Below, one piece after another: positions 1 through 62,882 of a stretch of DNA of 64,000 bases (its first letter is position 1; each line of letters opens with the position of its first letter). The stretch covers positions 2,829,916-2,893,915 of the forward strand of contig CAWJWJ010000002.1 in assembly GCA_963846575.1 (NCBI GenBank). The letters are read 5' to 3'. The notes under the pieces are model-generated. The model made no database searches and was not told the DNA's origin. It saw nothing but the letters and a program-made list of their open reading frames with translations. The stretch is from an uncultured Nitrospiraceae bacterium (GTDB taxonomy: Bacteria > Nitrospirota > Nitrospiria > Nitrospirales > Nitrospiraceae). Both the position numbers and the translations under genes were made by a program.

Positions 1-1
1 C

Positions 2-1432
2 CATGAGGCCCCTCTCCCCCTGGCCGCAGCGGTCGGATTCGCCGGTGGCCTGGGTGCCGCCTATGGCACGCTTCATTGGGTATTCGAGGTTCCCGGTTTC
101 GAACTGCAGCACTCACTGTTAGCCGCGAGCTACCTGGCCCTGTATCCCGCTGGCTGGTGTCTGGGCCTCTCGCTCATGACCCGCGCCGGCGTCACGCCCC
201 TCCTCCCCGCTGCCGCCCTCTGGGTGCTGCTGGATTACGTACGCGCCCATGCGGGATTTCTTGCCTTCCCCTGGGGCACCCTCGCGCACACCCAGCACCG
301 CAATATTCCCCTGCTGCAGCTTGCCGCGATCACGGGCGAATACGGCGTGACCTTCGTGGTGATGGTCGCAAGCCTCGCGTTTTCCGGACTCATCCTGCGT
401 CGCGCCTGGCGGGAGGCCGCCTTCGCGGCCGTGCTCCTCGCGATGGCGCAGGGCGGAGGAGCCCTGGCACTTCACGCCGACCCTCCCGGTCACACGATTC
501 GCCTGGCCGCCCTGCAACCGAATATTCAGATCGGCGAGCAGGATACGCAGGAAGGCCGCCACGCCGCGTTCACGCGCCTCGAGCGCCTCACATTCACCGC
601 CGCCGCGCAACGGCCCTCCTTGATCGCCTGGCCCGAAACGGCCATTGCCGGAAACCTGCAGGCCGACCCGCTGCTGGCCGCCGATCTGCAGGTGTTGGCC
701 CACGAAGCTGGAATGCCGATCGTACTGGGTGTCTCGGAGGTCGAAAAGTTTGCCTCACGCGACGCCTCGGGAACATCACGCCGGCGGGCCTACAATTCCG
801 CCTATCTCGTCTCCCCCGGGGAACCGCTCCCCCCACCCTACCGCAAACGGCTCCTGGTGCCGTTCGGCGAATATGTCCCGCTGGCAACGATGGTCCCCTG
901 GCCGGCATGGATGGGCGGGAAGCGCTTCGATTCCGAACCGGGCCAGGCATCTCGTCTCTTCAGCCTTCCGGACGGCAGCCCGTTCGCCGTGATGATCTGC
1001 TGGGAAAGCCTCTTCAGCGATCTCAGTCGAGAATCGGTGCAAGCGGGGGCGCGCCTGCTGGTGCAACTGAACAACCCGGCCTGGTTCGGCCGGACGGCGG
1101 CGGCGAAGCAGCAGAATATTTCCTCCGTCTTCCGGGCCGTTGAAAATCGCGTGCCGGTCCTGCTCGCGTCGAACACCGGACCCTCGCAGATCATCGATTC
1201 CTACGGGCAGGTCGTCGCGGAGAGCGCCACCATCTTCGCTGCCGGCCTGGTGGTTGGCGACGTGGTTCTCGGATCCTCCGGAACCCTGTACACCCGCATC
1301 GGCGATGGCTTCGTGTGGTGTCTGTCAGGTGTCTCACTGCTGCTTGGCCTGGTCCAGGTTCGTCGGACAAGTGTCGCCCCACCGGTCTCGCGGCGACGCC
1401 CATCGTCTCCCGGGGCACCAGCGGTTTCATAA
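2..1432 (+). CDS. lnt: Apolipoprotein N-acyltransferase, 5'-truncated by the window edge
   Basis: The frame is open from position 2. TM helices are followed by a nitrilase domain with the triad motifs WPETA, YRKRLLVPFGEY and ICWE, plus QPNI and RAVENR. Confidence 0.93.
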   Translation, partial: HEAPLPLAAAVGFAGGLGAAYGTLHWVFEVPGFELQHSLLAASYLALYPAGWCLGLSLMTRAGVTPLLPAAALWVLLDYVRAHAGFLAFPWGTLAHTQHRNIPLLQLAAITGEYGVTFVVMVASLAFSGLILRRAWREAAFAAVLLAMAQGGGALALHADPPGHTIRLAALQPNIQIGEQDTQEGRHAAFTRLERLTFTAAAQRPSLIAWPETAIAGNLQADPLLAADLQVLAHEAGMPIVLGVSEVEKFASRDASGTSRRRAYNSAYLVSPGEPLPPPYRKRLLVPFGEYVPLATMVPWPAWMGGKRFDSEPGQASRLFSLPDGSPFAVMICWESLFSDLSRESVQAGARLLVQLNNPAWFGRTAAAKQQNISSVFRAVENRVPVLLASNTGPSQIIDSYGQVVAESATIFAAGLVVGDVVLGSSGTLYTRIGDGFVWCLSGVSLLLGLVQVRRTSVAPPVSRRRPSSPGAPAVS

Positions 1433-1442
1433 GGAGGTCCCG

Positions 1443-2492
1443 ATGCACAGGCTCAGACTGTTCGCCATGGCCGCTTGTGCGCTCCTCATGGTGGTGTCGC
1501 CGCGGCAGGCCTCCGGAAAGGGCACGCTCCTCGAGCTTGGGCCGGATTATTTCTGTATCGACCACGCTCCCCAACGCGTCGCGTTCTCGCCGCCACCCTT
1601 CACCTACCTGTTCGGCGGCATCTGCAACCTGCGTCATACGCGATTGCAGATCCCCGTGGACGTCCCCTGGACAGGAACAGGCACCTACGACCCCGCGACA
1701 GGCAAGGTCACCGAGGACATCAACATCCCGGCCCCGACCATCAGCCAGCCCTCCCGCCCATACGGGCGTTTCCTGGCTTATATGCACTGTCCGTCCGATC
1801 CCTGGCGCGATCCAAACGTGAAATGCGACCAGGTGGCCGCTTCGTCGAAGCCTTCGGCGTCGGACTATCCACCGGGTCCGTACGGAGATTACGCCCGGAG
1901 CGTGGTGTTGCAAATCACCAGCCACATCCAGGGCTATCGGCGGCCCTATACGGCCCGCATGAAGGATACGCATCGGCAATATCTGAACGCGCAGTACAAG
2001 GCCTATGTGACAGCGATGAACAAACAACAGCTGATCCAGAAGGGCGCAGTTCAGTCTGAAGCTTCCGGTGCCTCCGGAGCGGCGGACGTCTACCGAACAC
2101 TGCTCCATCCGTCAGTCCTGTCGCCAAGACCCGGACAAATCCTGCTGTCACAGACCGCGGTTCCTATCAAGCTGGCGGCGCCGAACGGGTGGACCGTCAC
2201 CGGCTATACGGTCACCATCCAAAGACGAGACGCGAAGGGGGCCTGGGTCAATCACGTCACCATCCCGGTGAGTGAAGCCGAGGCGCGATCACCTGCCGGC
2301 TATAAGGGATTCGGGAATGGCGCGCCCCCGGCATTCCTGGTCACGCCGGGGAGGTGGCGTCTGAATGCACAAGTTTCCGTTCCGAAAAAGTCAGGCGTGA
2401 GTGACTGGGTGGAGTTTAACGTGACGCCCCATCAGGATGCCTATCAAGACTCGGCTCAGACGAAAAAGCGCAATCCATTTCTGAATCCATGA
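1443..2492 (+). CDS. Secreted Cys-containing hypothetical protein (paralogue A)
   Basis: AAGGAGG RBS before ATG 1443; signal-peptide-like N-terminus; full-length similarity to the next ORF. Confidence 0.8.
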   Translation: MHRLRLFAMAACALLMVVSPRQASGKGTLLELGPDYFCIDHAPQRVAFSPPPFTYLFGGICNLRHTRLQIPVDVPWTGTGTYDPATGKVTEDINIPAPTISQPSRPYGRFLAYMHCPSDPWRDPNVKCDQVAASSKPSASDYPPGPYGDYARSVVLQITSHIQGYRRPYTARMKDTHRQYLNAQYKAYVTAMNKQQLIQKGAVQSEASGASGAADVYRTLLHPSVLSPRPGQILLSQTAVPIKLAAPNGWTVTGYTVTIQRRDAKGAWVNHVTIPVSEAEARSPAGYKGFGNGAPPAFLVTPGRWRLNAQVSVPKKSGVSDWVEFNVTPHQDAYQDSAQTKKRNPFLNP

Positions 2493-2676
2493 GGAACCCA
2501 GGCACATCGTGAGCAGAAATAGAAACCAGCGGTTCACGAATGACGTCTAGGCGACGAACAACCAAACCGGAGCAATGCCCGCACCCCATTGTCGTGAGAA
2601 GCGCTGAAAGAACCAGATCCGTATCCACTGAGGTTTCAACGATCTGCCGTACCGATTGTCAGAAAAGGAGACTTTC

Positions 2677-3720
2677 ATGAGACTTGTGAGGATTTCTGTC
2701 TGTGGTGTTGGACTGGCGTTCTGCCTGATGATGAGTATGGCGACCCCACAGGGTGCATGGGCATCCGGCAGATTGCTGACAATTGAGGAAGAGTATTGTT
2801 ACAAATTCGCCTTGCAAAAAGTCATTCTTTCCCCCACGCCTTCCACCTACTTATTTACCGGAACATGCGACCTGGCCCATACACGCCTACTTCTCCCCGT
2901 TAAGGTCACGTATACCACTGTGGGCAGGTACGACCCCACGAACGGGAACACCACGGAAGAGATTAGTGTGCCCCCGCCCGCGATCAACGAACCCTCCCGA
3001 CCCTACGGCCGGTTTTTCGCCTCCATGCGTTGTGCTGCGGATCCGTGGCGGGACCGCAATGTGAAGTGCGATCAGGTCGTCGCCTCGGTTAATCCCCCCG
3101 CGAGTGCCTACCCGCCCAATCAATCGGGGGATCTTTCAAGAAGCTTGATCAGGCAAATCTTTGATCAGATCACCAAGTACTCCCTACGGCCGTACACCTC
3201 GTCTCTCACCAGCGATCAGAAAAAAGTGGTCGATGCGCAATATGATGCGGCTCTGGCCTCCGAACGGAGATCCCAACAGCTCCAGCAAGGGGCCAAGAAA
3301 ACAGAGGGGACATCCTACAGCGCAGGCCTCTCGCCCTCCGTGCTGTCGCCCGCGAGCGGACAAACGGTCGTAGCGCAAACGCCGGTGCTGATCAAGCTGT
3401 CGCCGCCCAAGGGGTGGAATGTGACGGGGTACATGGTCAATATTCAGAGAAAAGATGCGAAGGGGATCTGGGTTCATCACACCACCATTCCCGTGAGCGC
3501 GGCCGAGGCGCAATCACCCACCGGATACATGGGGTTCGGCAACGGCGCGCCACCGGCATTCTTGATCTTCCCCGGCGCATGGCGGCTCAACGCCCAGGCC
3601 TCGTCTCCCAAACAGTCCGGCACGAGTGATTGGATTCAGTTTTACGCGACGGCCTATCAGGGACCGGTGCAGCAGGCGGCCCCCAAAAATGGAGCCCACC
3701 TTCAGTTCAAGATCCCCTGA
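2677..3720 (+). CDS. Secreted Cys-containing hypothetical protein (paralogue B)
   Basis: AGGAG RBS before ATG 2677; signal peptide; shares PSRPYGRF, CxxDPWRDxNVKCDQV, GFGNGAPPAFL and WRLNAQ with paralogue A. Confidence 0.8.
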   Translation: MRLVRISVCGVGLAFCLMMSMATPQGAWASGRLLTIEEEYCYKFALQKVILSPTPSTYLFTGTCDLAHTRLLLPVKVTYTTVGRYDPTNGNTTEEISVPPPAINEPSRPYGRFFASMRCAADPWRDRNVKCDQVVASVNPPASAYPPNQSGDLSRSLIRQIFDQITKYSLRPYTSSLTSDQKKVVDAQYDAALASERRSQQLQQGAKKTEGTSYSAGLSPSVLSPASGQTVVAQTPVLIKLSPPKGWNVTGYMVNIQRKDAKGIWVHHTTIPVSAAEAQSPTGYMGFGNGAPPAFLIFPGAWRLNAQASSPKQSGTSDWIQFYATAYQGPVQQAAPKNGAHLQFKIP

Positions 3721-3813: not shown

Positions 3814-4776
3814 TTACCGCGGCAGGTATTTCACGACATAGTCCGTGCCGTGGAAAGACGATTCGATGACCTGGATCTGGGCGGGGCTCATGGGGTTGAT
3901 ACCGGCCTGCATAAGCAGATCGCTACGGAGGGTCTGCCAGACCACCTGATCGAACTGGCTGCGGGTTTGCGGATGGCTGAGAGCTTCGCGCACACCCGTC
4001 TCAATGGCGTTGGCGAGACTCTCGAGGTATTTCTTGGACACGTCGCAGATGTTGATCGGAAACAGCACATCGAACCAATAGACGCATTTGTCCTGCGCTT
4101 TCAACCCTCCGCGAAATCCGGTCCGCACGGCTTGATAGGTCGGAAACCCCCCTTGGTTGGTCGTGGGGATGATGAAGATATCGACAATGGCGTTCTCGCC
4201 CACGGTATCACCGACCGCTTGATCGCCCTCCGGCGAGTAGTCGCGGTAATAGGTCTTGAATTGTAACGAGGGAAAATGAAACTCCAAATGGAGTTCCGTG
4301 CCTTCCGACTTGACGACCGGCGGATTCGAGAGGCCATTGGCATGCACGTACACACGGCCTCCATTTGAAGCCTCATGCACATAGGGCGGAACCGTGAATC
4401 GTCCGGCCAGACTGCGCCCGATGGTAAAGTTCGAATCGATTTGGCCGCGCAAATTGGTCAGTTGCACGAACGACTTCGAGAGATCTCCGCCGAGGAGCAG
4501 CGCGAGCGGAATTTTTTTGGTGAGAGGCGCGGGAGGCGGCGACTGGTATCGACCGGGCGCGGCACCCTGCGGAGCCAGCCCGTGCGGCATCGGCTGTTGT
4601 CCCGGTGGTGGCGCCGTGTGGGCCTGGCCCGGTGAGAGATTCGGTTGGGCCGGAACCGACGGGGTGTTGGAGCGAGGCGGAAACACCTGCCCGAGGGCCG
4701 GGGCATCACTCCCCCCGGCGAGCACCACACCCGTCACCAGCATCCAGAGGCCGGCCGTACGCATCGTCGTTTTCAT
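3814..4776 (-). CDS. Secreted hypothetical protein with a Pro/Gln-rich N-terminal region
   Basis: Signal peptide, P/Q-rich linker and a globular domain with two Cys; directly downstream of the lipoprotein gene. The start could be 4797. Confidence 0.75.
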   Translation of the reverse strand: MKTTMRTAGLWMLVTGVVLAGGSDAPALGQVFPPRSNTPSVPAQPNLSPGQAHTAPPPGQQPMPHGLAPQGAAPGRYQSPPPAPLTKKIPLALLLGGDLSKSFVQLTNLRGQIDSNFTIGRSLAGRFTVPPYVHEASNGGRVYVHANGLSNPPVVKSEGTELHLEFHFPSLQFKTYYRDYSPEGDQAVGDTVGENAIVDIFIIPTTNQGGFPTYQAVRTGFRGGLKAQDKCVYWFDVLFPINICDVSKKYLESLANAIETGVREALSHPQTRSQFDQVVWQTLRSDLLMQAGINPMSPAQIQVIESSFHGTDYVVKYLPR

Positions 4777-4799
4777 GCGATCCGTGACGAGCCTCACCC

Positions 4800-6398
4800 C
4801 TATTGGTGTTTGAACCAGCGAGTGACCCGCACGTCCTCACCGGGCTTCGCCGCGACGTAGGACAGCGCCGTGACCTGGGCCGGCTGTTGTGCCTCATCCC
4901 GCACCAGCGTCGCATGACCGGCCTGAGTTTTTCCGAACCCGTTGGGGAGCACCGCCGGCTCCTCGACCTGGGCAGCCGCCTGCCCCGCAGGCCGCTGCTG
5001 CCCCGCGAGTTGTGTCAGGATCTCCTCCAGATCGGTACGTCTCGCCGGTGATGCCACCAGAAACAAGGTCTCCACCCCCTTGAACTGATCCAGCGTGAAC
5101 CAGTAGGGCCCGTCTGGAAAGGCCTGTTCGGTTTCGGGCTTCAGGGGATTGACGACCGTGCCGTCGGCGACGGGGAAAATCGGCTGCGCCCAGCCGGAAC
5201 CATCCACCGACACGACATAGACGAAACACTCGCAGTTCGTGCGCACGACCAGCTTGAAGCGGTCGCCTTCCGGTCCGCCCTTCAGCGCTTCACCGTCCTG
5301 CATCAGGGAGACTTCTTTTCCGGTCGGAGTCGTCACCTGACGGATCAGCGCGACATCCAACGTGACCGGCTCCGCCGGTCCCGGCACCGACCGCGTATAG
5401 ATCTGACCGGGGTATCCCACGCCCATATTCGGCGCTTGTCCCTGGTAGCCATATTGCTGCCCGCCCATCGGCTGTTGATAGCCCTGCATGGGCTGCTGTT
5501 GGTACCCCGCCGGCATGCCCTGTTGCTGATAACCCTGCATCCCCTGTTGCTGGTAGGGATCCATCGGCTGCTGGTACGCCCCGCCCATGGCCTGTTGCAT
5601 CGGTTGTTGCCCATAACCCGGCATGGCCTGACCGCCGGGGTACCCGGGAGCCATCGGCTGTCCCATCGTTCCAGGGGCCGCGGCAGGATAACCCGGCTGC
5701 GGAGGCAGGTTCTGCCCGCCCGGATAGCCCGGTTGCGGCGGATAGCCGCCCATCTGTCCTCCGTATTGGCCCCCATACTGTCCGCCATATTGCCCGCCGT
5801 ACTGCTGGTTCATTCCGTAGGCCGGAGCCTGGACGTTCATGCCAGGCACGGAGGCGTAGGGATTGTTCGGATCGTAATACTGTCCGGCCTGGCCTTGGTA
5901 GCCGTACCCCGAACTCTGCGCGGCTCCATACCCGCCCGTTCCGCCGTACCCATAGGCCTGCTGCCCGTAGCCTCCCGGTGGATAGCCGGCGCCAGGCATC
6001 GCGCCGGTGGGATTGTAGGGATCGACATAGCTGCCGCCATATCCAGCGGCGCCGGACTGGCCCGCCATCCCGGGCTGTCCCCCCATCTGATTCATCATCG
6101 CCTGCTGCTGTTGCTGCAACATCACCGGCGGAACCAGCGCGGCCGGCGACGTCCCCATGGGCAAACCCATGGCCACGTAGGGCGTACTCAGACGCACCAT
6201 GAGCCGATTCATGTCTTCGGAATATTTCCCGCCGTAGTTCTTATTGCCGGTCATGAGCAGATTCCGGGCAAACTCGATTCCAGCGGGGATGAGGAAGGGA
6301 GCGGCAGCGCAGGAGGCTAACAGGAGAAAAGGCAGAAATGCCAGAATTCCCGCATGTTGACCGGTAGAAACTCTGGGCGACCTGTGACATCCGTTCAT
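4800..6398 (-). CDS. Lipoprotein with a long G/Q/Y/P/M low-complexity tract and a C-terminal DUF4384-like domain
   Basis: Lipobox LLASC. The C-terminal GDRFKLVVRTNCECFVYVVSVDGSG..IFP..FTLDQFKGVETLFLVAS fits the DUF4384 pattern. GAGGTG RBS. Confidence 0.8.
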   Translation of the reverse strand: MNGCHRSPRVSTGQHAGILAFLPFLLLASCAAAPFLIPAGIEFARNLLMTGNKNYGGKYSEDMNRLMVRLSTPYVAMGLPMGTSPAALVPPVMLQQQQQAMMNQMGGQPGMAGQSGAAGYGGSYVDPYNPTGAMPGAGYPPGGYGQQAYGYGGTGGYGAAQSSGYGYQGQAGQYYDPNNPYASVPGMNVQAPAYGMNQQYGGQYGGQYGGQYGGQMGGYPPQPGYPGGQNLPPQPGYPAAAPGTMGQPMAPGYPGGQAMPGYGQQPMQQAMGGAYQQPMDPYQQQGMQGYQQQGMPAGYQQQPMQGYQQPMGGQQYGYQGQAPNMGVGYPGQIYTRSVPGPAEPVTLDVALIRQVTTPTGKEVSLMQDGEALKGGPEGDRFKLVVRTNCECFVYVVSVDGSGWAQPIFPVADGTVVNPLKPETEQAFPDGPYWFTLDQFKGVETLFLVASPARRTDLEEILTQLAGQQRPAGQAAAQVEEPAVLPNGFGKTQAGHATLVRDEAQQPAQVTALSYVAAKPGEDVRVTRWFKHQ

Positions 6399-6418
6399 CG
6401 TAGCACCTCACCGTCTAG

Positions 6419-6449
6419 CCGTTTGTCGCCGCGATCCGGAGAAGGTTCA
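6419..6449 (-). promoter_or_regulatory. Putative ECF-sigma promoter of the lipoprotein operon (TGAACCTT-N13-CGACAAACGG)
   Basis: AAC-type -35 and CGAC-type -10, 20 nt upstream of ATG 6398. The same motif and spacing recur before the caspase gene. Confidence 0.7.
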
Positions 6450-6453
6450 CGGG

Positions 6454-6483
6454 ATTGTAGGCTCCGGGTCCCCGGCGGGTCAA
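6454..6483 (-). promoter_or_regulatory. Putative sigma-70 promoter (TTGACC-N18-TACAAT)
   Basis: 5/6 matches at both -35 and -10, immediately upstream of the ECF-type promoter. Confidence 0.45.
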
Positions 6484-6574
6484 CCGGCTGCTATTGAGAG
6501 GCTGCCGGCTTCTATGTTACAGCAGAGGCGCCGGCACGTCGGTACCTCTGCCTTTTTCTCGAACATGTGGGCCC

Positions 6575-7159
6575 ATGAGCGCGACTCACGAGCACAACGC
6601 GGTGGAGGGCACGCTGGTGATGCGGGCGGCAGGCGGAGACACCCACGCTTTCGAAGCTCTGTACCGACTCTACGAAAAGCGGGTGTTCCATTATATCTGC
6701 ACCTTCGTGCGCGACCATTCGCTAGCGGAAGAGGTGGTCGGGGAAGTCATGCTGGCCGTGTGGCGCGGAGCCTGCCACTTTGCGAATCAGTCTCGCGTCT
6801 CGACATGGATCTTCGGTATCGCCCGTCACAAGGCCCTCGATGCCGTCCGGCGAAGCGGCCGGCCTGATCACAAGGCCGTGACGATCGACGACCTGCCCGA
6901 TCTTCCCAGCCAACAGGACACGCCGATCGAACAGATTCAACGGGAACAGCTCGCCACCGTGATGCGGCAGGCGCTTGGTGCCCTGTCGCCCGAACATCAG
7001 GAAGTGTTGCGATTGGTGTTTTACGAGGAACTTCCCTACGAAGACATCGCGCTGCTGCTCAGCATTCCGGAAAATACCGTCAAAACCCGCGTGTTTTACG
7101 CCAAGCAACAGCTGAAACGACAGATCAATCGCTCGATCTCCAGAGAGACCGTCTTATGA
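6575..7159 (+). CDS. ECF RNA polymerase sigma factor
   Basis: Region 2 (AEEVV..VMLAVW, STWIFGIARHKALD) and region 4 (LSPEHQEVL..YEDIA..IPENTVKTRVFYAK). Confidence 0.95.
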   Translation: MSATHEHNAVEGTLVMRAAGGDTHAFEALYRLYEKRVFHYICTFVRDHSLAEEVVGEVMLAVWRGACHFANQSRVSTWIFGIARHKALDAVRRSGRPDHKAVTIDDLPDLPSQQDTPIEQIQREQLATVMRQALGALSPEHQEVLRLVFYEELPYEDIALLLSIPENTVKTRVFYAKQQLKRQINRSISRETVL

Positions 7160-7833
7160 CGACGCCGAACGAAGCCTCCATGGCCCACCCGGCTGCGACA
7201 CTCCTTCCCTGGTATCTGACCGGCACCTTGAAGGAGGCCGAACGACGAACGGTGGATGAGCACCTGGCGACCTGCGCCGACTGTCGCGCTGAACTGGACA
7301 GTCTGGCCCAGCTGCGTGCTCCGCTGCAGGCGGCGCTGGCCGCGGAGCCCACGCCGGTCCTGCATGTGAAGGAGGCCGTGATGGCGCAGGTCCGGACGGA
7401 ACGGGAGGCTCGTCACAGTCCCAATGCGTCGCCATCTGATGGATGGGCCGGCCATGCGGTGGAGCAGTGGTTTCGCAATCTGTTCGCACCGCGGTGGGTC
7501 CCCGCACTCGCCGCGACCCTGTTGATCGGTCAATTCGCCCTGCTCCTGTGGACGGCCGGCCCGCAAACCATCCCGCCCCCTGACCAGGTCACCAGCCGGG
7601 GTGTTTCGCCGGCGGCCGTCCGCGTCATGTTGGTGTTCCAGAAGTCGGCATCCGAGGCGCGCATCCGGGCCGTCATTTTGAACTTGAAGGGCCGCCTCGT
7701 CGATGGGCCCACCGCGGACGGCGTCTATACCATCACCATCCCGGCGGCCGAATCGGCAGGACTCGAGGCCAGCCTCAAGCGGCTGCAGCAACAAACCGAT
7801 CTGATCCGGAAGGCAGAGTTGGTCCGCCGATGA
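7156..7833 (+). CDS. Zinc-binding (zf-HC2/ZAS) transmembrane anti-sigma factor
   Basis: ATGA overlap with the sigma gene; LLPWY, HLATCADC (HxxxCxxC), one TM helix and a small extracytoplasmic domain. Confidence 0.9.
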   Translation: MTTPNEASMAHPAATLLPWYLTGTLKEAERRTVDEHLATCADCRAELDSLAQLRAPLQAALAAEPTPVLHVKEAVMAQVRTEREARHSPNASPSDGWAGHAVEQWFRNLFAPRWVPALAATLLIGQFALLLWTAGPQTIPPPDQVTSRGVSPAAVRVMLVFQKSASEARIRAVILNLKGRLVDGPTADGVYTITIPAAESAGLEASLKRLQQQTDLIRKAELVRR

Positions 7834-7861
7834 ACCTTTACCCGCGCGATCCGACCCACGG
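7831..7861 (+). promoter_or_regulatory. Putative ECF-sigma promoter of the caspase gene (TGAACCTT-N13-CGACCCACGG)
   Basis: Matches 6419-6449 in sequence and spacing; ends 21 nt before ATG 7883; the -35 overlaps the anti-sigma stop codon. Confidence 0.7.
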
Positions 7862-7882
7862 ATCAGGACACGAGGACAGGAC

Positions 7883-10105
7883 ATGACCCCACGATCTTTC
7901 TGCTGCATGACGCTCGCCTGTGCCATCCTGACCATGGGCGGTGTCGGGCGGGCGGCCGATTCCACCAAGACGGCCACGAAACGCGCGTTGCTCATCGGCA
8001 TCAACCGCTACCAGGCGCTGCCCTCGCTCAACGGCTCCCTCAACGACATCGAAACGATGCGGCAGGTCCTCACGACGCGGTGGGGATTTCAACCGCAACG
8101 CATCACGATGCTCACCGACCAGGCTGCCACCCGCGCGGGGATGCTGGCCGCATTCGACAAGCTGGCCAAGGAGACGGGCCCGGATGATGTGGTGTACGTG
8201 CACTATTCCGGCCATGGATCCCAGGTCGAAGATTTCAGCGGCGATGAGACGGACGATCACCTGGACGAGACACTGGTTCCGCACGACGGCCGGACGGCCA
8301 ATGTGCGGGATATTACCGATGACGAGTTGGATGAGATCTTCTCCCGGCTCCAGGCCCGAAGCGTCTTGATCGTGCTCGATTCCTGCCATTCCGGCACGGC
8401 GACGAGATCTCTCGATATCCGTACCCGTTCCGTCCCCAAGGACAGCAGGGTAGAGTTGTACCGCCCCTCCGCCGTGCAGACCCGCCAGGTGGTGCCGGTC
8501 GTGGCTTCACGGTATGTCCTCATGAGCGGGGCCGCGGCCAATCAGGAAGCCCTGGATGGTCCGGTTGAAGGACGGTATCACGGATTTTTCTCCTACTCCC
8601 TGGCCAAGAGCATCGGGAGCGCCGACCGGGCCGCGACTCCGCGCGACATTTTTGCCGGCGTCGAACGCGAAATGCGGCGCATCCAAACCCATTTCGGTCG
8701 CACGTCCATGCCGGAGCCGCAACTGGAAGCTCCCCCCGTTCTGTTGGACAGGCCGCTCCTTCCTTCCTTGAAGGCCCCGGCGTCCCCGGCGGAGGCTGGC
8801 GCCCCGGCGCGTCTTCCCTGGGTGGAAGTGAAAGCCGCCGGAGGCGATGGGTTCCTGCTGCTCCAGGGAGTTCCCCTCGGTGCACAGCCCGGGTCCAGCT
8901 GGACGGTCTTTCCGCCGAACGAGACGGCATTCGTTCCGGGGCAGGCGCTCGGGGTCCTGACCGTCACGCAGGTTCGTGGGAAAGACGCGCTGGCCAAGCC
9001 ACAGAGTGACCCGTTCTCCATTCCCCCCGGCGCGAGGGCCGTGGCGTTTCTTCCTGCGGCTCCACCGGAGCGCATCCCGATACGCCTGTTGGATGTCCCG
9101 CCCGGCCAACGTTCCAAGATCGAAGCGGTGTTGAAACAGTACGGACGCGACGCCCAGATCGTGGAGGCCGGGCAACCGGCGCAGTACCTCGTCGAGGTGA
9201 AGGACAACCGCCTGCAACTCTATTCAGCCGACGGCTTACAGGTCATCAGTTCATTCGCCATGGACGGCCCCCAATGGGGCGCCGGCCTCGCCCTGGTCCT
9301 CTCACGTTCCGCGAATGCCTCCGAACTCCTGACCCTGGACAACCCCTCCTCTCAACTGAAGCTCGCCGTCAAAGTGGCGGGCAGCGCACGCCGGGCCACG
9401 CGGGGGATCGCCGTCGTCGCGGATACGCAGCCGGCTCAGTATCATATTCGCCGGAATGGGGAACCCAGAAGCTCGTCCAACAGTCTGCAACTGGAAATTC
9501 AGGCGAGCGGCGATAGCTACATCACGATCGTCGATGTCGATTCCGAGGGCCATCTCAATCTGCTGTTTCCCAACGACCATCAACAACCGGCCTTCTATCC
9601 CGATGGGCACGTGCGGGCAGGCGAACAGGTGACGATTCCCGATTCTCCACAATCCGGCAACCACGCGGGCTTCCACTGGGATTATGCCGATCCGGCCGGG
9701 ATCGATACCGTTCGTGTCTTCGCGTCCACCGACCTGGACACGGCCCGGGCCATTCGTCAGCGGGTCCGATCCGTTCCGGCACCCGCCGCCGGTACCGCCC
9801 TGGTCATGACCCGATCGGTGGTCGCCAAAGAAGTCATGGACCTTCGACGCGACCTGAGCAAAGTCGCCAGCCGGGGGCTCACGCCCATTTACGATCCCAC
9901 GCCGGCCGCCCTCACCAACCAGCCACCGCCGGCCCCTGATCTTCCCCAGCCGCCGGCTCCGCCGGTCGGCGTTCCACCGCCCCAGCAACAGGCCATGGAG
10001 GCATCGAAGCCTCCCGCCCCGGTCCATCCGGTGACGCAAACGGTGGCCGCCGTTCCATCGTCCGATTGGACGGCCACATCGCTCACCATTCAGGTCGAAC
10101 CCTAA
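7883..10105 (+). CDS. Exported caspase-family (peptidase C14, metacaspase/orthocaspase-like) protease with DUF4384
   Basis: Signal-peptide-like N-terminus; KRALLIGIN.Y, HYSGHG (catalytic His), LDSCHSG (catalytic Cys); C-terminal YITIVDVDSEG.LNLLFPN..GIDTVRVFAS (DUF4384-like) and a Pro-rich tail. Confidence 0.9.
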   Translation: MTPRSFCCMTLACAILTMGGVGRAADSTKTATKRALLIGINRYQALPSLNGSLNDIETMRQVLTTRWGFQPQRITMLTDQAATRAGMLAAFDKLAKETGPDDVVYVHYSGHGSQVEDFSGDETDDHLDETLVPHDGRTANVRDITDDELDEIFSRLQARSVLIVLDSCHSGTATRSLDIRTRSVPKDSRVELYRPSAVQTRQVVPVVASRYVLMSGAAANQEALDGPVEGRYHGFFSYSLAKSIGSADRAATPRDIFAGVEREMRRIQTHFGRTSMPEPQLEAPPVLLDRPLLPSLKAPASPAEAGAPARLPWVEVKAAGGDGFLLLQGVPLGAQPGSSWTVFPPNETAFVPGQALGVLTVTQVRGKDALAKPQSDPFSIPPGARAVAFLPAAPPERIPIRLLDVPPGQRSKIEAVLKQYGRDAQIVEAGQPAQYLVEVKDNRLQLYSADGLQVISSFAMDGPQWGAGLALVLSRSANASELLTLDNPSSQLKLAVKVAGSARRATRGIAVVADTQPAQYHIRRNGEPRSSSNSLQLEIQASGDSYITIVDVDSEGHLNLLFPNDHQQPAFYPDGHVRAGEQVTIPDSPQSGNHAGFHWDYADPAGIDTVRVFASTDLDTARAIRQRVRSVPAPAAGTALVMTRSVVAKEVMDLRRDLSKVASRGLTPIYDPTPAALTNQPPPAPDLPQPPAPPVGVPPPQQQAMEASKPPAPVHPVTQTVAAVPSSDWTATSLTIQVEP

Positions 10106-10352: not shown

Positions 10353-13300
10353 TTACGGCATGGACGCGGTGGAACGGGAAATCTGTCCCTCCCCCTGTTC
10401 CGACTTCGCCCTCTTCGTCGACGGCCCATGCTGACTCAACGGGAGAATCCGTTGGTCGTCCAGCGGGAGGACCTTGAGCAATCCCCACTGGCCGGACTGG
10501 GCGTAGGGCAATCGCTGGTTGCTCCAGACGTAGTCGCCCGGCAGGCGGAAACTTCCGCCAGCGGCGGGAATGAAGGCGTCCAGCGTCTCGGATGCGGAGA
10601 ACTCCACGACGCTGATCTGGTCGGCCCCGCGCATGAACGGCTCGATCGGCCATTCATGTTTTTCGACACCGAACATGCCGTTCTGCTCGTTGCTGGCGCC
10701 GAACACATGGATGCGCACGGGATCACCCGCATGCGCCTCAATGAGCGGCGTCGCAAGACTCTCGGGCTGATCCACCGAACAGGGTTGGAACATCCTGCCT
10801 AAGGTACAGCCGTTCGATTCACGGAACTTGTACGGCTCCGACCGGTAGTTCACGGCGGTCAATCCCGCCGTGTTCTGCACATAGGGCATGAAACTCGTCC
10901 CGATGATGTTGTCCTCATCCTGAAAGAACAGGGCGACATCCCGGTAGTTCGAACGATGCTCGTAGCCCTGAATGGTCCGGTCGACGATCACGTCCGCGAT
11001 CCAGCTATTCTTCGTCGAAATATCCGCGCCGGTCTTCGGATCGCGATAGGAGGCTCCCTTGGGGCCGATCACGATTCCGCCGAACAGGCCGTTGCGCGGG
11101 TTCGTCATCACATTCCCCCAATCCCACACCAGGGAAGCGGTCTCTCCGATGAATGGATCGGCGTAGTAGGTGTACAGCCGGCTCTCACCGGGCGCGACAG
11201 TCTGATCGCCCGGATTGTTGCCGACGTTCGCGCCCAGGGAATCCTTCGGATCGAACGCCAGACCGATCGCCGAGAACGAGGCTCGGCTCTCCTTCATCCT
11301 GTTGGTCAGCTTGACCTTGAGGCAGTCGCCGATATTCGCCCGCAGCGTCAGCGGCATCGGTTGCGCACCGGACGCCACGGTCGCCACGTCTTCCTCCAAG
11401 ACGTAAATCTTGGCCTCGGGGTTGACCATTTGAATGGTCCGCTCGAAATCGACCTCGATGGCGTCCGGCGCCTTCTGGTTCAACTTCATCGACGGGAAAT
11501 CGATCGCCGCGACGTTGAAGCTCTTCACCGGCGCATCGGCAGGACAGACCGCCGGTGCCGGCGGAATCACATTGCGTCCGCTGTAACCGGAGGGCAACTT
11601 CTGCAGATCCGGCACATCCTTATCCAACACCCGCAGGACACCCCAGGCGCCCTCGGAGAACTTGGACGAGCGACCGTTAAAGTGGATGTAGTCGCCCGAC
11701 TGCAGCCTCGGCCCGCCGGCTTGCGGCACCACCAGATCGTACCGCTCGGCGATGCCGATATGAATGGAGTTTTTCCGGTTCGCGTCGCCGGCATACCGTT
11801 CAGTCAAGAAGGTATGACCGGACAGCGTCCAGACCATGCTTTCGTTGGTCATGGTCTGCAACAGCCGGAACACGACCGTATCGCCCAGGTAGGCCCGCAC
11901 CATCGGCGTGTAAGGATCGCCGTGTACGGCGCTGCTGAACAGTTTCGACGGATCCGGATCGGCCTTCAGGCGGCCCGAGATCGGTTCCGCCCTGAAATTG
12001 AGGCTGCCGCCGGTCGTATGTGTGCCGCCGTTCAGGAACGGCATCGGTGTCATCTTGATATGGTCCGGAATCGGGAAGGACACGGTCTTCCCCGCTTCCA
12101 ACGCCACCTCGATCGGCTGACCGGGCGGGTTGCCCGCCGTGACGATATTGATGGTGTGCGGCACGCTATCGTTCAACTGGACCATGAGTTCACGGAAGCT
12201 GCCGTTGACGCCATACCCCACCGGCTCCACGGTCCGGATGTCCGCCAGCGGCCCGCTCCGGATCGGTTTCCCGGTTTTCGGATCGTGGTAGGTGGATCCG
12301 ACCGGCTCGACGATCATCGTGCCGAACCCGCCATGGCCCCAGGTAATCCGGCCCAACGCATGGTCGTGCCAGAACACGGTGCCGACGTCCGAGTCGACCC
12401 AGAACCGCTGCCTGACGAATTCCACCGTCACGATATCCTTGACCGGATGATCGTGTTTCAGCGGCCGAACCAGGGTCAGTTCATTGCCCTTGATCGACTT
12501 GATCCGCCCGACTTCATTCCCGCCCACATTGTCCGCGCCGATCAGGATTTCCACTTCGGGATGGTACTGCGCGGCATTCTTGACGGTAATCACGCGGTCG
12601 CCCTTCTTCGCGGCCTTCGTGAACACCGTGTTCAGCGGCAGCGGCAGACCTTTCTTGGTCTTCTTCTCGAGCATGGTGAAGGGACGCACCGATTGTTCGT
12701 TTGAGAAGCCGGTGATCACGCCGTCCGACGACTGGTTGTCGAACTGCAGGAAGTGCCAATGGGTATTGACCTTGGACGAATGGAAATTCGAGTAGTCGTC
12801 GTCTTCCCATTCGCTGGTCAACATCCAGTCGACGCAATCGTAAATGTTCGACCGCACGACCAACGGGTACTTCAGGTCGTTGTTCTTCCTGATCGCGGCC
12901 TCTTCTTCATGCAGGACATAAATCAACCCGCCTTCATCCTTGATCGCCGGCGTCTCGCCCTGCTGATCGGCCAGCGTCATCGGCGTGTTGATGAAGTGCA
13001 CGTTGTATTTCTTCGAGCCGGCATTCTCAGGACAGAGGCTCCACCGCCCGTTCTCACCGGGCTTCGCAGGATACGAGCTCGGCAATCCGTCGTCGTCCAG
13101 GTGGATCATTTCCAGCCAGGGAGACGGATTGTGATTTTTTGAAAACGGGACGCGCCGCCCGAAATGCGGCTTCAGATGCGGCCATGATACTTTGCCGGTC
13201 AAGGGCTCGAAGACAATCGGCAGCCGTTCACCGGGATGGGCCGACTGGTAGCGCGGATTCGGGACGGTGTTTTCCGGCTCGGTCATCGCGCGATTGCCCT

Positions 13301-15236
13301 GCCAGCCCCAGTTCAACACGCTGGCATCATAGGAACGCGTCTGGTCCCGCTCATCCTGTTTGTGTCCCGGCAGCCCTTGCGGCGGGAACTGCATGTCGAC
13401 CCAGTCTTTCAGGGTGACGATGGCCGGTTCCGCCTTCCAATCGGTTTTGCCCTTCTCGATGATCTTGAATTGTTTCCCAAACCAATCGACGGTCTTGCCG
13501 ATCAGCTCATCGGACGTCACGCCCGTCTTGATGCGGCCCTTGCGGTCCGGCAGCTCCAACAGGTCCGGCATGACGTCGTTATGGTTCGCTCCCTGCTGGA
13601 TCGTGTTGTACACGCGCCAGTAGCCCCACATCCCGGCGATGTAATGATGGGCGACGTGGCAATGGAACAGAAAATCTCCCGCCAGTTGCTGACAGAGCCC
13701 GGACCCGCACTCGGTTTCCAGATCCATCGTTTCGGACGGGCCGATGACTTCCACGTCGACCCGGTCGGACTTCATCCGGATCACCGGATATTTCACCGGA
13801 CCGTTCTTCGCCGCATGCCACAGCGGCATTTCATCGATGGCCCGGGGGCTTCGCGGCCACCGGATGGAGCCGCCATGCGGATGGTGAGAGTGGAAGACTT
13901 CCGACCCGCCGTGCACGAGACGGAACTTGGCCGGGTCGCCGAGGTAACTGCGGGGAATCGTCGTGGCGGGATCGCCGAACGTATAGGCGCTGTAGGCCAT
14001 CGATTCGTCCTCGAACCCGAAATATTCGTGCTGGGTCTGCATGTTGTCGACCCCGAACGGCTCGCTGCGGTAATTCAGCGCGCGGGCCACCGGTCGGTAG
14101 ACGTCGGTCAGGGGATCGCGCTGCGGAATGAAGTCGCCCTTTTTGTTCAGCGGGCGAAAGGCCTCATCTCCGACCTCATGGTAGAAGAGGACGAACTCTC
14201 GAAAATCCGGGCCGGCTCCGTTCTTGATGATGGCCTGCCACCCGCTCTTGGTCGGCTTGGGATCTCCGGTCCCCAGCGGTTCGAGATACTCGGATCCCTT
14301 CGGCTCGATCACGAAGGAACCGAACAGTCCCATCACGGTCAACTCACGATCGTTGCTATAGGAATGGAATTGGCGGCTGCCCTCCTGCTGCGTGGGCGGG
14401 ATGTACCATTCCATCTCCACCGCCTTTCCCGGCGCGGCGATGCTGTCGGGATTCGTGGTGGTGGCCGGCTGACCGGTCGACGACACAATCATGCTGGAGC
14501 CATGGATGTTCAAACTGACTTCTTCGTCGCCTTCCAACTGGTTGCGCAGCGTGAGCTTCACGCAATCGCCCTGGTTGCCGCGCAGGACCAGCGGTTGAAT
14601 CCATTGATTCTGCAATCCGTTCATCACGGCGCCCGGATCGAATCCGTCCTGCTCGCGCGCGTCACGATTCTTGGTCTCTTCAGCGCGAACCTGATCAAGC
14701 GACTCGGTCAGGGCGTACATATAGCCGGGATAAAAATCGAGCCACATGTTCAGCGTGATCTCGACGTTGATGGCCGAGACGTCGTAGCTCCGGACCGGCG
14801 CGCCAGCGGGACAGCGCCCACCCGACAACGACACGGGCTCGACGCCGCTGTTCGACATCAACAACATGTCCTGGGCCCCGGCCCCGTACTGATGCAGCAT
14901 ATTGACGTTGTTGTACATCCCATCGGTGCGCTGATGGTTCGAATCCTGCGCGAGCTGATCGTTGATCTTGTCCATGATGCGCTGGTGCTGCCGCTCCATC
15001 ATGGCCGTCCGCTCGACATGCCCTTCATGCGCATCTTCGACGATGGTTTGCCCCTTGAGTCGCTCCGCCCAGGCCGGCGTCTCGTGCGCCGTCGCATGCA
15101 GGTCGGCAGGCGCCGCCGAGACGACCTGGAATGCCCCGACGCACAACGATGGCAGCAACAGACCCATGAGGGACATCCAGGCCGCCGACGGCCTTCGCTG
15201 AGACCCCTTGCTCGCCCTAGTTCGTGCCGATTTCAT
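10353..15236 (-). CDS. Very large multidomain multicopper oxidase (MnxG-like size)
   Basis: Cu motifs HSHHPH, HCHVAHH..GM, THWH and WHDH; signal sequence; GAGGAGG RBS before ATG 15236. Confidence 0.88.
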   Translation of the reverse strand: MKSARTRASKGSQRRPSAAWMSLMGLLLPSLCVGAFQVVSAAPADLHATAHETPAWAERLKGQTIVEDAHEGHVERTAMMERQHQRIMDKINDQLAQDSNHQRTDGMYNNVNMLHQYGAGAQDMLLMSNSGVEPVSLSGGRCPAGAPVRSYDVSAINVEITLNMWLDFYPGYMYALTESLDQVRAEETKNRDAREQDGFDPGAVMNGLQNQWIQPLVLRGNQGDCVKLTLRNQLEGDEEVSLNIHGSSMIVSSTGQPATTTNPDSIAAPGKAVEMEWYIPPTQQEGSRQFHSYSNDRELTVMGLFGSFVIEPKGSEYLEPLGTGDPKPTKSGWQAIIKNGAGPDFREFVLFYHEVGDEAFRPLNKKGDFIPQRDPLTDVYRPVARALNYRSEPFGVDNMQTQHEYFGFEDESMAYSAYTFGDPATTIPRSYLGDPAKFRLVHGGSEVFHSHHPHGGSIRWPRSPRAIDEMPLWHAAKNGPVKYPVIRMKSDRVDVEVIGPSETMDLETECGSGLCQQLAGDFLFHCHVAHHYIAGMWGYWRVYNTIQQGANHNDVMPDLLELPDRKGRIKTGVTSDELIGKTVDWFGKQFKIIEKGKTDWKAEPAIVTLKDWVDMQFPPQGLPGHKQDERDQTRSYDASVLNWGWQGNRAMTEPENTVPNPRYQSAHPGERLPIVFEPLTGKVSWPHLKPHFGRRVPFSKNHNPSPWLEMIHLDDDGLPSSYPAKPGENGRWSLCPENAGSKKYNVHFINTPMTLADQQGETPAIKDEGGLIYVLHEEEAAIRKNNDLKYPLVVRSNIYDCVDWMLTSEWEDDDYSNFHSSKVNTHWHFLQFDNQSSDGVITGFSNEQSVRPFTMLEKKTKKGLPLPLNTVFTKAAKKGDRVITVKNAAQYHPEVEILIGADNVGGNEVGRIKSIKGNELTLVRPLKHDHPVKDIVTVEFVRQRFWVDSDVGTVFWHDHALGRITWGHGGFGTMIVEPVGSTYHDPKTGKPIRSGPLADIRTVEPVGYGVNGSFRELMVQLNDSVPHTINIVTAGNPPGQPIEVALEAGKTVSFPIPDHIKMTPMPFLNGGTHTTGGSLNFRAEPISGRLKADPDPSKLFSSAVHGDPYTPMVRAYLGDTVVFRLLQTMTNESMVWTLSGHTFLTERYAGDANRKNSIHIGIAERYDLVVPQAGGPRLQSGDYIHFNGRSSKFSEGAWGVLRVLDKDVPDLQKLPSGYSGRNVIPPAPAVCPADAPVKSFNVAAIDFPSMKLNQKAPDAIEVDFERTIQMVNPEAKIYVLEEDVATVASGAQPMPLTLRANIGDCLKVKLTNRMKESRASFSAIGLAFDPKDSLGANVGNNPGDQTVAPGESRLYTYYADPFIGETASLVWDWGNVMTNPRNGLFGGIVIGPKGASYRDPKTGADISTKNSWIADVIVDRTIQGYEHRSNYRDVALFFQDEDNIIGTSFMPYVQNTAGLTAVNYRSEPYKFRESNGCTLGRMFQPCSVDQPESLATPLIEAHAGDPVRIHVFGASNEQNGMFGVEKHEWPIEPFMRGADQISVVEFSASETLDAFIPAAGGSFRLPGDYVWSNQRLPYAQSGQWGLLKVLPLDDQRILPLSQHGPSTKRAKSEQGEGQISRSTASMP

Positions 15237-15424
15237 GCCTCTACCTCCTCGTGAAACCGTCATCACCGTAACCTCAATTCAAAATCGTTCGGTCAGGCGC
15301 CGCCGAACCTGCCGCTCATGGAGTGGATCACTCCGGAGGCCGGTCCTTTGTTCACTCATCCGTGAACCGGACGGGTGACCTGTGGTCCTTACACCGTTGG
15401 ACCTGTACGTACCAACGGCAGTAG

Positions 15425-22200: not shown

Positions 22201-22334
22201 ATCGTTGGAAACTCCACCTGGGGAAGCGAGGCGACGGGCAGGAAACGAAAGGCCACCAGACCGATCAGCGTGACGCCGATCGTGAGTAACATCGTCGCGA
22301 CGGGACGCCGGATGAAGGGAGCCGAGACATTCAT
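19236..22334 (-). CDS. mdtC: RND efflux permease MdtC-like
   Basis: [32 protein letters not shown] and RFRPIMMTT; second RND gene after the mdtB-like gene. Confidence 0.88.
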
Positions 22335-25300: not shown

Positions 25301-25444
25301 CATCACCTGAATGGTCGGGTAGTCGACTTGCGGAAGCGCGGAGACCGGCAACTGGCGGTAGGCCACGGCCCCGACGAGCAGGATGGCAATCATCGTCAGG
25401 ACCGTTGCGACCGGTCGCACGATGAACAGCCTCGAAGGGTTCAC
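22331..25444 (-). CDS. mdtB: RND efflux permease MdtB-like, split by two frameshifts (~24150, ~23393)
   Basis: MNPSRLFI.RPVAT start; three ORF pieces join into one collinear MdtB. Probably sequencing indels. Confidence 0.85.
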
Positions 25445-62703: not shown

Positions 62704-62882
62704 AAAGTACTTTTTTAGTACTTTGTACTTAAAGTACTACTTTAAGTACTTTTCTAGTACTTGTACTTGTACTTTAAGTACTTTCCAGTTGAAGTACTTG
62801 TACTTGTACTTAAAGTACTTTTTTGCTCAAGTACTTGTACTTGTACTTAAAGTACTTTTGAAAAGTACTTTAAACAACACTG
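62704..62882. repeat. AT-rich AAGTACTT/TTGTAC repeat array ending in CAGTGTTG on the minus strand; resembles the end of an animal hAT-type transposon
   Basis: More than 15 GTAC-centred units; abrupt compositional break at ~62702. Confidence 0.6.

Follow-up and report, generated by a model that had tools for sequence, protein, structure and literature searches.

A sigma factor, anti-sigma and exported metacaspase locus in Nitrospiraceae points to a possible new circuit for extracytoplasmic protein maturation that would amplify itself

Introduction

What might an exported metacaspase do beside a sigma factor of the extracytoplasmic function (ECF) type and a membrane-bound anti-sigma? This question is raised by a five-gene divergent locus (positions 3814-10105) in a stretch of 64,000 nucleotides from an uncultured Nitrospiraceae bacterium (assembly GCA_963846575.1, contig CAWJWJ010000002.1, positions 2,829,916 to 2,893,915), hereafter the window. 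For the majority of bacterial metacaspases no substrate is known, and they are treated chiefly as cell-death enzymes; this locus offers an exported metacaspase together with its probable cleavage site and candidate substrates by the dozen. A preceding sequence-only reading had placed sigma factor, anti-sigma and protease genes on one strand and genes for a lipoprotein and a secreted protein on the other, with a DUF4384 domain in both protease and lipoprotein, and all of these genes and domains were recovered by open reading frame (ORF) analysis and Pfam matches.

Comparison with related genomes points to a circuit, not described so far, that would mature proteins beyond the cell membrane and amplify itself. 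The linkage of the genes, their promoters, the catalytic and pocket residues of the caspase, the placement and swap of an Arg-centered motif, and the co-occurrence of motif-bearing secreted proteins (cargo) are established by such comparison. The best reading, to which we give a slight preference over its negation, is that the exported caspase acts as both site-1 protease and proprotein convertase, with its sigma factor inducing more caspase. A fuller proposal is a bacterial proprotein-convertase system based on caspases, in which one or more exported metacaspases turn on their own ECF sigma factor by cutting its anti-sigma and process secreted proteins and disulfide-rich peptides, dozens in number and unrelated to each other, each by way of a portable acidic pro-piece that holds a single Arg site; this extracytoplasmic cascade with positive feedback seems to us evenly balanced between true and false. 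No description of this system was found in the literature searched, most subscription papers lying outside that search.

Conserved linkage and distribution of the locus

Close relatives belong to Nitrospira, and the locus has a patchy distribution, the caspase being present in 19 of 401 Nitrospirota genomes (source genome included). Full-length matches to the anti-sigma (E below 1e-30) were found in 16 of the 400 other genomes of the phylum, with an adjoining caspase in 16/16, the lipoprotein in 15/16 and the secreted protein in 10/16. A scan of GTDB genomes yielded 257 caspase loci, the best 80 of which were used in linkage counts. The anti-sigma adjoins the caspase in 69 of these 80, and 7 of the 11 misses are contig ends; the co-occurrence for which the sequence-only reading had called is therefore conserved. 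Among the 56 loci with at least 4.5 kb of upstream sequence, the lipoprotein was present in 49 and the secreted protein in 32.

Most caspase loci belong to Nitrospirota and several to Gammaproteobacteria. In the latter the divergent partner is a different Q/P/G-rich secreted protein with a Thr-Arg-Gly loop, which was considered as a DUF4384 protein and set aside, homology to DUF4384 not being established; at least one of these loci has a TPR-CHAT protease next to that partner. The genes also keep together in a Nitrospirales lineage with a divergent caspase and with two or three lipoproteins after the anti-sigma, so the linkage outlives rearrangement. A broad anti-sigma alignment intended for the locus scan was dropped as too divergent. 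On a contig labeled Solirubrobacteraceae (L119:489-4777), two anti-sigma genes flank the caspase; this locus sits on a long branch and the label may be a binning error.

The anti-sigma linker motif follows the type of the neighboring protease

The anti-sigma family has more distant members that stand before S8 subtilases (41 non-redundant loci). A total of 166 anti-sigma ORFs were reduced to 143 at 90% identity, comprising 76 caspase-linked, 41 S8-linked and 26 with neither protease in view; most S8 loci were supplied by a metagenome scan (best 80 of 466 matches). The motif [VI]xxR[GSANT][VIL] occurs in the linker of all 76 caspase-linked anti-sigmas, none of the 41 S8-linked ones and 2 of the 26 others, whereas aromatic-x-x-[LM]-[GSAQ] occurs in 1/76, 36/41 and 16/26, respectively. 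Arg148 is the sole invariant residue between membrane helix and ectodomain (70/70 aligned) and lies about 15 residues outside the membrane. A cut at this membrane-proximal site would shed the ectodomain, as in canonical site-1 cleavage, and subtilisins prefer an aromatic residue at P4 and Leu at P1.

The sequence-only reading had proposed an envelope circuit in which the lipoprotein scaffolds or activates the caspase, the caspase clips the anti-sigma and the freed sigma factor induces both genes. The tracking of protease type by the anti-sigma Arg motif is the strongest argument for such a circuit, and linkage, predicted export and promoters of the sigma type also speak for it; the part that found no support is the lipoprotein as obligatory scaffold or activator, which is missing or unrecognized in 7 of the 56 long loci and carries the Arg motif in only 30 of 68 homologues.

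Two further observations concern the same anti-sigma family. The conserved aromatic-x-x-Leu linker of the subtilase-linked members (L144-L212) is a candidate site-1 site for the neighboring S8 protease, and at L187:2029-5431 an anti-sigma with neither linker motif is followed by a TPR-CHAT protease, possibly a third protease type.

The anti-sigma ectodomain bears on a different explanation, namely a homeostatic sensor in which the ectodomain would bind the protease like a propeptide inhibitor, and the sigma factor would be freed when protease is short or by another site-1 protease. The model of the ectodomain is ferredoxin-like and has no Foldseek match at E 0.001 or better; subtilisin propeptides are among its top weak matches (E 4e-3 to 2e-2), and PF22148, which we take to be a fervidolysin-type prodomain, was detected in 4 of 108 anti-sigma homologues. 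A promoter copy across the sigma start codon (see below) would also suit a damped circuit of this kind. However, ACT and ribosomal S6 domains score level with the propeptides, and the simplest explanation for a membrane-proximal invariant Arg that swaps with the protease type is cleavage there. We regard this sensor, in which competing cargo would make protease scarce and the caspase would be mainly an output of the regulon, as quite unlikely. A complex prediction for caspase and anti-sigma ectodomain scored 0.00 against a mark of 0.32 and counts neither way.

The exported metacaspase and its probable specificity

The catalytic His111 and Cys168 are invariant, and both p20 and p10 parts of the caspase fold are present. 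The solved structures closest to the predicted model are metacaspases (Z 23.3 and root-mean-square deviation 2.6 over 236 residues to AtMCA-IIf). Asp55 and Asp166, which all 74 sequences share and which align with aspartates of yeast Yca1, are presumably acidic residues of the S1 pocket. In the linker after the catalytic Cys, Arg175, Arg182 and Arg201 are invariant (74/74), and Arg507 and Arg664 are found in at least 90% of the sequences. Because the acidic pocket residues are conserved and because of where the motif is placed, the caspase can be predicted to cut after Arg in [VI]xxR[GSA][VIL]. In the available parts of two papers (PMC3501461, PMC8283722), metacaspases are described as cleaving after Arg or Lys, and mention is made, without a function, of bacterial metacaspases that are exported and of caspases fused to DUF4384.

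A hydrophobic N-terminal stretch was found in 96 of 98 homologous caspase ORFs (duplicates included), in agreement with the earlier proposal of an exported, not cytoplasmic, enzyme. The Arg-centered motif that had been described as common to the three proteins was also recovered, at Arg148 of the anti-sigma, Arg336 of the lipoprotein and Arg182, 201, 507, 644 and 664 of the caspase. In the caspase model (predicted local distance difference test, pLDDT, 76.8), the motif Arg residues are within or beside low-confidence loops, the middle domains form a beta-barrel and an alpha/beta domain, and DUF4384 bears a long loop with the Arg motif. Resemblances of the middle domains to ATPase N-terminal barrels (Z 8 to 8.7) and to a curli-complex chain (Z 7.3) were too weak for use.

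Conserved promoters of the ECF33 type

Two boxes 15 nt apart were detected about 50 nt ahead of the caspase and also ahead of the lipoprotein (Table 1). In a search with free spacers (our estimate of chance occurrence is < 0.01 per 100 nt), 15 of 17 caspase loci had the two-box site at the anti-sigma stop codon, and all 13 loci with a divergent lipoprotein had it ahead of that gene; it was not found ahead of the divergent caspase in three rearranged loci. The promoter motif previously suggested to be common to protease and lipoprotein genes is thus the same site at both and is conserved across related loci. The promoters here match the -35 consensus of the ECF33 group, with AC in the -10 box. 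Another copy lies across the sigma start codon in 7 loci and is degenerate in this locus; since such a copy straddles the start, its transcript would lack that ATG and could yield anti-sigma only.

Secreted cargo and the upstream island

The left edge of the window closes an island of about 33 kb, which consists mostly of secreted proteins; Lnt, a DsbA-like protein and three further caspases, whose dyads are intact, are also encoded there. The Arg motif is borne by 9 of the 11 consecutive secreted ORFs in the final 9 kb of the island. Because the motif marks many secreted proteins outside the window, the role of the protease seems to extend beyond regulation to maturation. With the locus excluded, 9 motifs were counted in about 7,760 aa of the island, versus 20 in the other 829 secreted ORFs, which total 243,189 aa. 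Among secreted neighbors, 27 of 157 bear the motif beside caspases and 0 of 57 beside subtilases. The commonest form of the motif was turned into a DNA pattern and searched in the 19 caspase-positive genomes and in 55 hand-picked caspase-negative genomes of the same order. Clusters of at least four same-strand matches within 30 kb were found in 7/19 and 0/55 genomes, respectively (43 further matches are unable to make a cluster in the negative genomes).

Ten regions from 9 genomes gave 66 cargo proteins; these regions were picked for motif matches and therefore show variety, not enrichment. Two layouts were recognized among the motif-bearing ORFs in the final 9 kb of the island. N-type cargo has a signal, an acidic pro-piece, V-Q-E-R and a mature domain, whereas C-type cargo has a cysteine-rich domain, R-R-G-V-E and an acidic tail. 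Judged by the mature part, there are 13 families among 44 N-type and 7 among 24 C-type cargo proteins. The pro-piece ahead of the motif is acidic, with a mean of 5.0 Asp+Glu versus 0.45 Lys+Arg (n=38). A fascin-like cargo family, present in 9/19 caspase-positive versus 0/55 caspase-negative genomes, has the motif in 83 of 102 signal-bearing homologues (among 120 listed), and several of the motif-less ones are without the entire pro-piece. Judging by database names, Nitrospira japonica and Nitrospira sp. KM1 are among the carriers of this family.

It has also to be considered that the Arg motif might serve in binding or sorting, as a signal recognized by DUF4384 or an export factor, and not as a cut site. 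The fixed hydrophobic residues on either side of Arg would fit a docking strand, and the motif sits in loops of DUF4384 domains; yet it is also found in the inter-subunit linker of the caspase and exactly at pro-piece/mature boundaries after acidic stretches, and beside subtilases it swaps to a subtilisin-like P4-aromatic/P1-Leu pattern. A role as a signal is accordingly improbable in our view.

Several observations on individual ORFs can be added. The secreted ORFs at L213:9248-18715 (contig ~2.820-2.830 Mb, just upstream of window position 1) include many with 6-12 Cys and acidic pro-pieces or tails, and showed no Pfam match save one DUF7910; an atlas search with one cysteine-rich cargo protein returned only unnamed clusters or leads under 0.9. 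At L214:4938-16366, a caspase-DUF4384, a 485-aa caspase and a WD40-caspase, all with intact His-Cys, are encoded together with a TPR protein and a CHASE2 protein. A Thr-Arg in the 327-aa secreted protein of the locus was dropped as a cut site because the motif is unconserved there and placed in a likely helix.

The proposed circuit and the points against it

In the circuit that we favor, the caspase would leave the cytoplasm as a zymogen and activate itself in the inter-subunit linker, loosening the DUF4384 loop. The active enzyme would then cleave the anti-sigma at Arg148, so that the ectodomain is shed, and an RseP-type site-2 protease would complete removal of the anti-sigma and free the sigma factor, as in known ECF pathways; M50 proteases encoded in the genome are candidates for this second cut. 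Transcription of caspase and lipoprotein by the sigma factor from the two conserved promoters would close a positive loop, which is probably damped, as the third promoter copy would make anti-sigma without full-length sigma factor. As output, acidic N-terminal pro-pieces or C-terminal tails would be cut off at the Arg motif of the cargo, that is, disulfide-rich mini-proteins and fascin-like and other domains, perhaps assisted by the DsbA-like protein and Lnt of the island. The lipoprotein would be a membrane-tethered, co-regulated substrate or modulator. That export, self-activation, the Arg148 cut, site-2 release, the positive loop and cargo maturation all hold jointly is judged to be a little better than an even prospect.

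Several points weigh against this proposal. Four of the best 80 caspase loci have full flanks and no anti-sigma. In a quick tree of 107 adjacent sigma factors (74 caspase, 33 S8; loci lacking a protease or full sigma factor excluded), the caspase-linked ones form one clade with 1 change (SH-aLRT 97), so the motif swap is one event and the 76 caspase-linked linkers are not 76 independent tests; the genomes compared are also kin to each other. By the pattern used, 12 of the 19 caspase-positive genomes have no motif cluster, some of them having variant motifs, and 'secreted' status and gene calls were based on crude hydropathy and ORF rules. Finally, an exported WD40-caspase with an intact dyad occurs in 13/19 caspase-positive versus 0/55 negative genomes, including all 9 with fascin-like cargo, and is nearer to the cargo than the sigma-linked caspase in some genomes; it could equally be the cutter of the cargo.

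The last point leads to a two-step cascade, in which the sigma-linked caspase would cut only the anti-sigma and itself, perhaps also activating other caspases, and the WD40-caspase or another island caspase would mature the cargo. In one genome (G357), the WD40-caspase is about 10 kb from the cargo and the sigma-linked caspase about 100 kb off; the linker of the WD40-caspase holds a conserved Arg-Arg site, and a second caspase-DUF4384 is present in 5/19 versus 0/55 genomes. The available part of the report on SAVED-CHAT/PCaspase (bioRxiv 2023.06.23.546230) provides a precedent for a two-protease cascade. These accessory parts are nested within the genomes that have the sigma-linked caspase. 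On the other hand, the cargo motif equals that of the sigma-linked caspase and the anti-sigma, the three other caspases are without a strict copy, and motif-bearing secreted proteins directly adjoin the sigma locus in several genomes. The cascade is considered unlikely.

Comparison with known systems

By gene order, anti-sigma type and promoter, the locus is a caspase version of the ECF33-type sigma/anti-sigma/subtilase layout. According to the available part of the Casas-Pastor 2021 supplement (PMC7826278), ECF33 subgroups 2 and 3 comprise a sigma factor, a zinc-finger anti-sigma with one helix at +1 and a subtilase at +2. The present locus shares with them the gene order, the one-helix zinc-finger anti-sigma at +1, the -35 consensus and the AC in the -10 box, and its anti-sigma family is homologous to that standing beside S8 proteases in the 41 loci above. 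It differs in that the +2 gene encodes a C14 metacaspase-DUF4384 instead of a subtilase, the caspase-linked sigma factors form their own clade, the linker motif contains Arg instead of aromatic-x-x-Leu, a lipoprotein and a cargo island come in addition, and most hosts belong to Nitrospirota. The NCBIfam model nearest to the sigma factor is PRK12515 (158 bits, below the cut-off of 236), and the word 'caspase' was not found in the portion of the supplement text searched.

Gating of a sigma factor by a caspase fold has precedents, which the sequence-only reading had taken to be cytoplasmic. This premise needs correcting, as an extracytoplasmic caspase-fold domain has already been proposed to gate an ECF sigma factor in DdvA-DdvS of Myxococcus xanthus (PMC11506125; PMC6061681, as far as the available text goes). 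There, too, a zinc-finger transmembrane anti-sigma would be gated by an extracytoplasmic caspase fold before RseP. However, the anti-sigma of that system carries a fused TPR-CHAT domain whose active site is incomplete and which controls a CBASS-CRISPR island, whereas here the C14 enzyme is separate with an intact dyad, the anti-sigma has 225 aa and a small ectodomain, and the maturation of secreted proteins looks to be the output. A caspase-fold protease also stands beside a sigma factor in type III CRISPR protease-sigma modules, namely Csx29/Csx30/RpoE (bioRxiv 2022.08.17.504292) and SAVED-CHAT/PCaspase/PCc-sigma (bioRxiv 2023.06.23.546230), and some Csx30 C-terminal domains are DUF4384. In the available parts of these reports, the modules belong to CRISPR/CBASS loci and respond to RNA or cyclic oligonucleotides as triggers, whereas the protease here has a signal-like N-terminus. 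Independence from CRISPR, as originally suggested, was borne out within the 64-kb window, where neither a CRISPR array nor a cas gene was seen, and PADLOC returned only generic caspase and HEAT/WD matches for 15 locus and island proteins. ECF54 neighbors include CHAT proteins, without an anti-sigma (PMC8999054, available part).

With regard to maturation, the C11 proteases fragipain and doripains likewise have a caspase fold and are exported; they possess an activation loop, and secreted proproteins are activated by them after Thr-Arg sites (PMC9308784). The family here is C14 (Pfam matches to C14 only), C11 structures reaching Z of about 8 versus 23 for metacaspases, and the available part of that paper describes no linked anti-sigma with the same site for C11 proteases.

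In DegS/RseA, PrsW/RsiW and eukaryotic SKI-1/S1P, a membrane-proximal cut frees a transcription factor, and venom peptide precursors have an acidic pro-piece ending in Glu-Arg. With site-1 proteolysis and SKI-1/S1P, the proposed circuit would share one protease for regulation and proprotein maturation; the protease families differ and the analogy is functional only. If the proposal is true, a caspase joins the site-1 proteases, DUF4384 gains a context, and many subtilase-linked anti-sigmas are predicted to be cut by neighboring proteases at aromatic-x-x-Leu. The analysis also brings to light a set of uncharacterized disulfide-rich secreted peptides in nitrifying bacteria.

The lipoprotein and other features of the window

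Residues 91-335 of the lipoprotein contain 25% Gly, 20% Gln, 13% Pro and 13% Tyr (Q+N 24%), with 3 charged residues of 245. This low-charge G/Q/P/Y composition fits the label 'prion-like' given to it initially, but nothing beyond composition supports that label, Pro being at 13% and the length of the region variable (0 to ~345 residues in homologues). The 30 homologues with the Arg motif ahead of DUF4384 are all of the Nitrospiraceae type; in 14 cases a copy lies within the loop of DUF4384. The lipoprotein may be a tether with a substrate or bait site, or an inhibitor. For the 327-aa secreted protein of the same operon, no Pfam match was found, and atlas searches gave only leads below 0.9, to TULIP-like families, or unnamed clusters. 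The features of the locus and of its left flank are listed in Table 1.

Table 1. Coordinates of the locus and left-flank features in the window
Feature	Positions	Strand	Remark
Lnt (lipoprotein N-acyltransferase)	1..1432	+	start beyond left window edge; closes secreted-cargo island continuing leftward
Two paralogous secreted proteins, 52% identical	1443..3720	+	no Pfam match; without strict Arg motif; membership uncertain
Secreted protein, 327 aa, Pro-rich N-terminal linker	3814..4797	-	second gene in lipoprotein operon; accessory
Lipoprotein, 532 aa, lipobox Cys30, G/Q/P/Y-rich 91-335, DUF4384 377-451 (E 4e-9)	4800..6398	-	
Lipoprotein Arg336	5391..5393	-	motif separating low-complexity region from DUF4384; candidate cut site
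ECF33-type two-box promoter ahead of lipoprotein	6421..6449	-	
Degenerate promoter copy across sigma start codon	6560..6589	+	read from sequence; full copies at same place in related loci
ECF sigma factor, 194 aa, Sigma70_r2 and Sigma70_r4_2	6575..7159	+	ATG at 6575
Anti-sigma, 225 aa, zf-HC2 (ZAS) 15-44, membrane helix 115-133, linker, ectodomain 155-223	7156..7833	+	
Anti-sigma Arg148	7597..7599	+	predicted site-1 P1 residue
ECF33-type promoter over anti-sigma stop codon	7831..7859	+	ahead of caspase
Metacaspase, signal-like N-terminus, Peptidase_C14 33-279 (E 3e-28), DUF4384 534-616 (E 5e-15)	7883..10105	+	

Beyond the locus, a gene for a 1637-aa secreted multicopper-oxidase-like protein (10353-15266, minus strand) is convergent with the caspase, and a gene of similar size is near the locus in two close relatives. 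A resistance-nodulation-division (RND) efflux gene (22331-25444, minus strand) is seemingly broken by frameshifts into three overlapping ORFs, with an intact paralogue alongside (19236-22334). An intergenic region (62724-62866) contains four imperfect 37-nt AT-rich palindromic repeats, which are unlike CRISPR. From 35000 to 64000, GC content drops from ~62% to ~54%, ORFs resembling those for polysaccharide ABC export and glycosyltransferases are present, and duplicated segments lie 13.7 kb apart; this part of the window is likely a separate acquired island.

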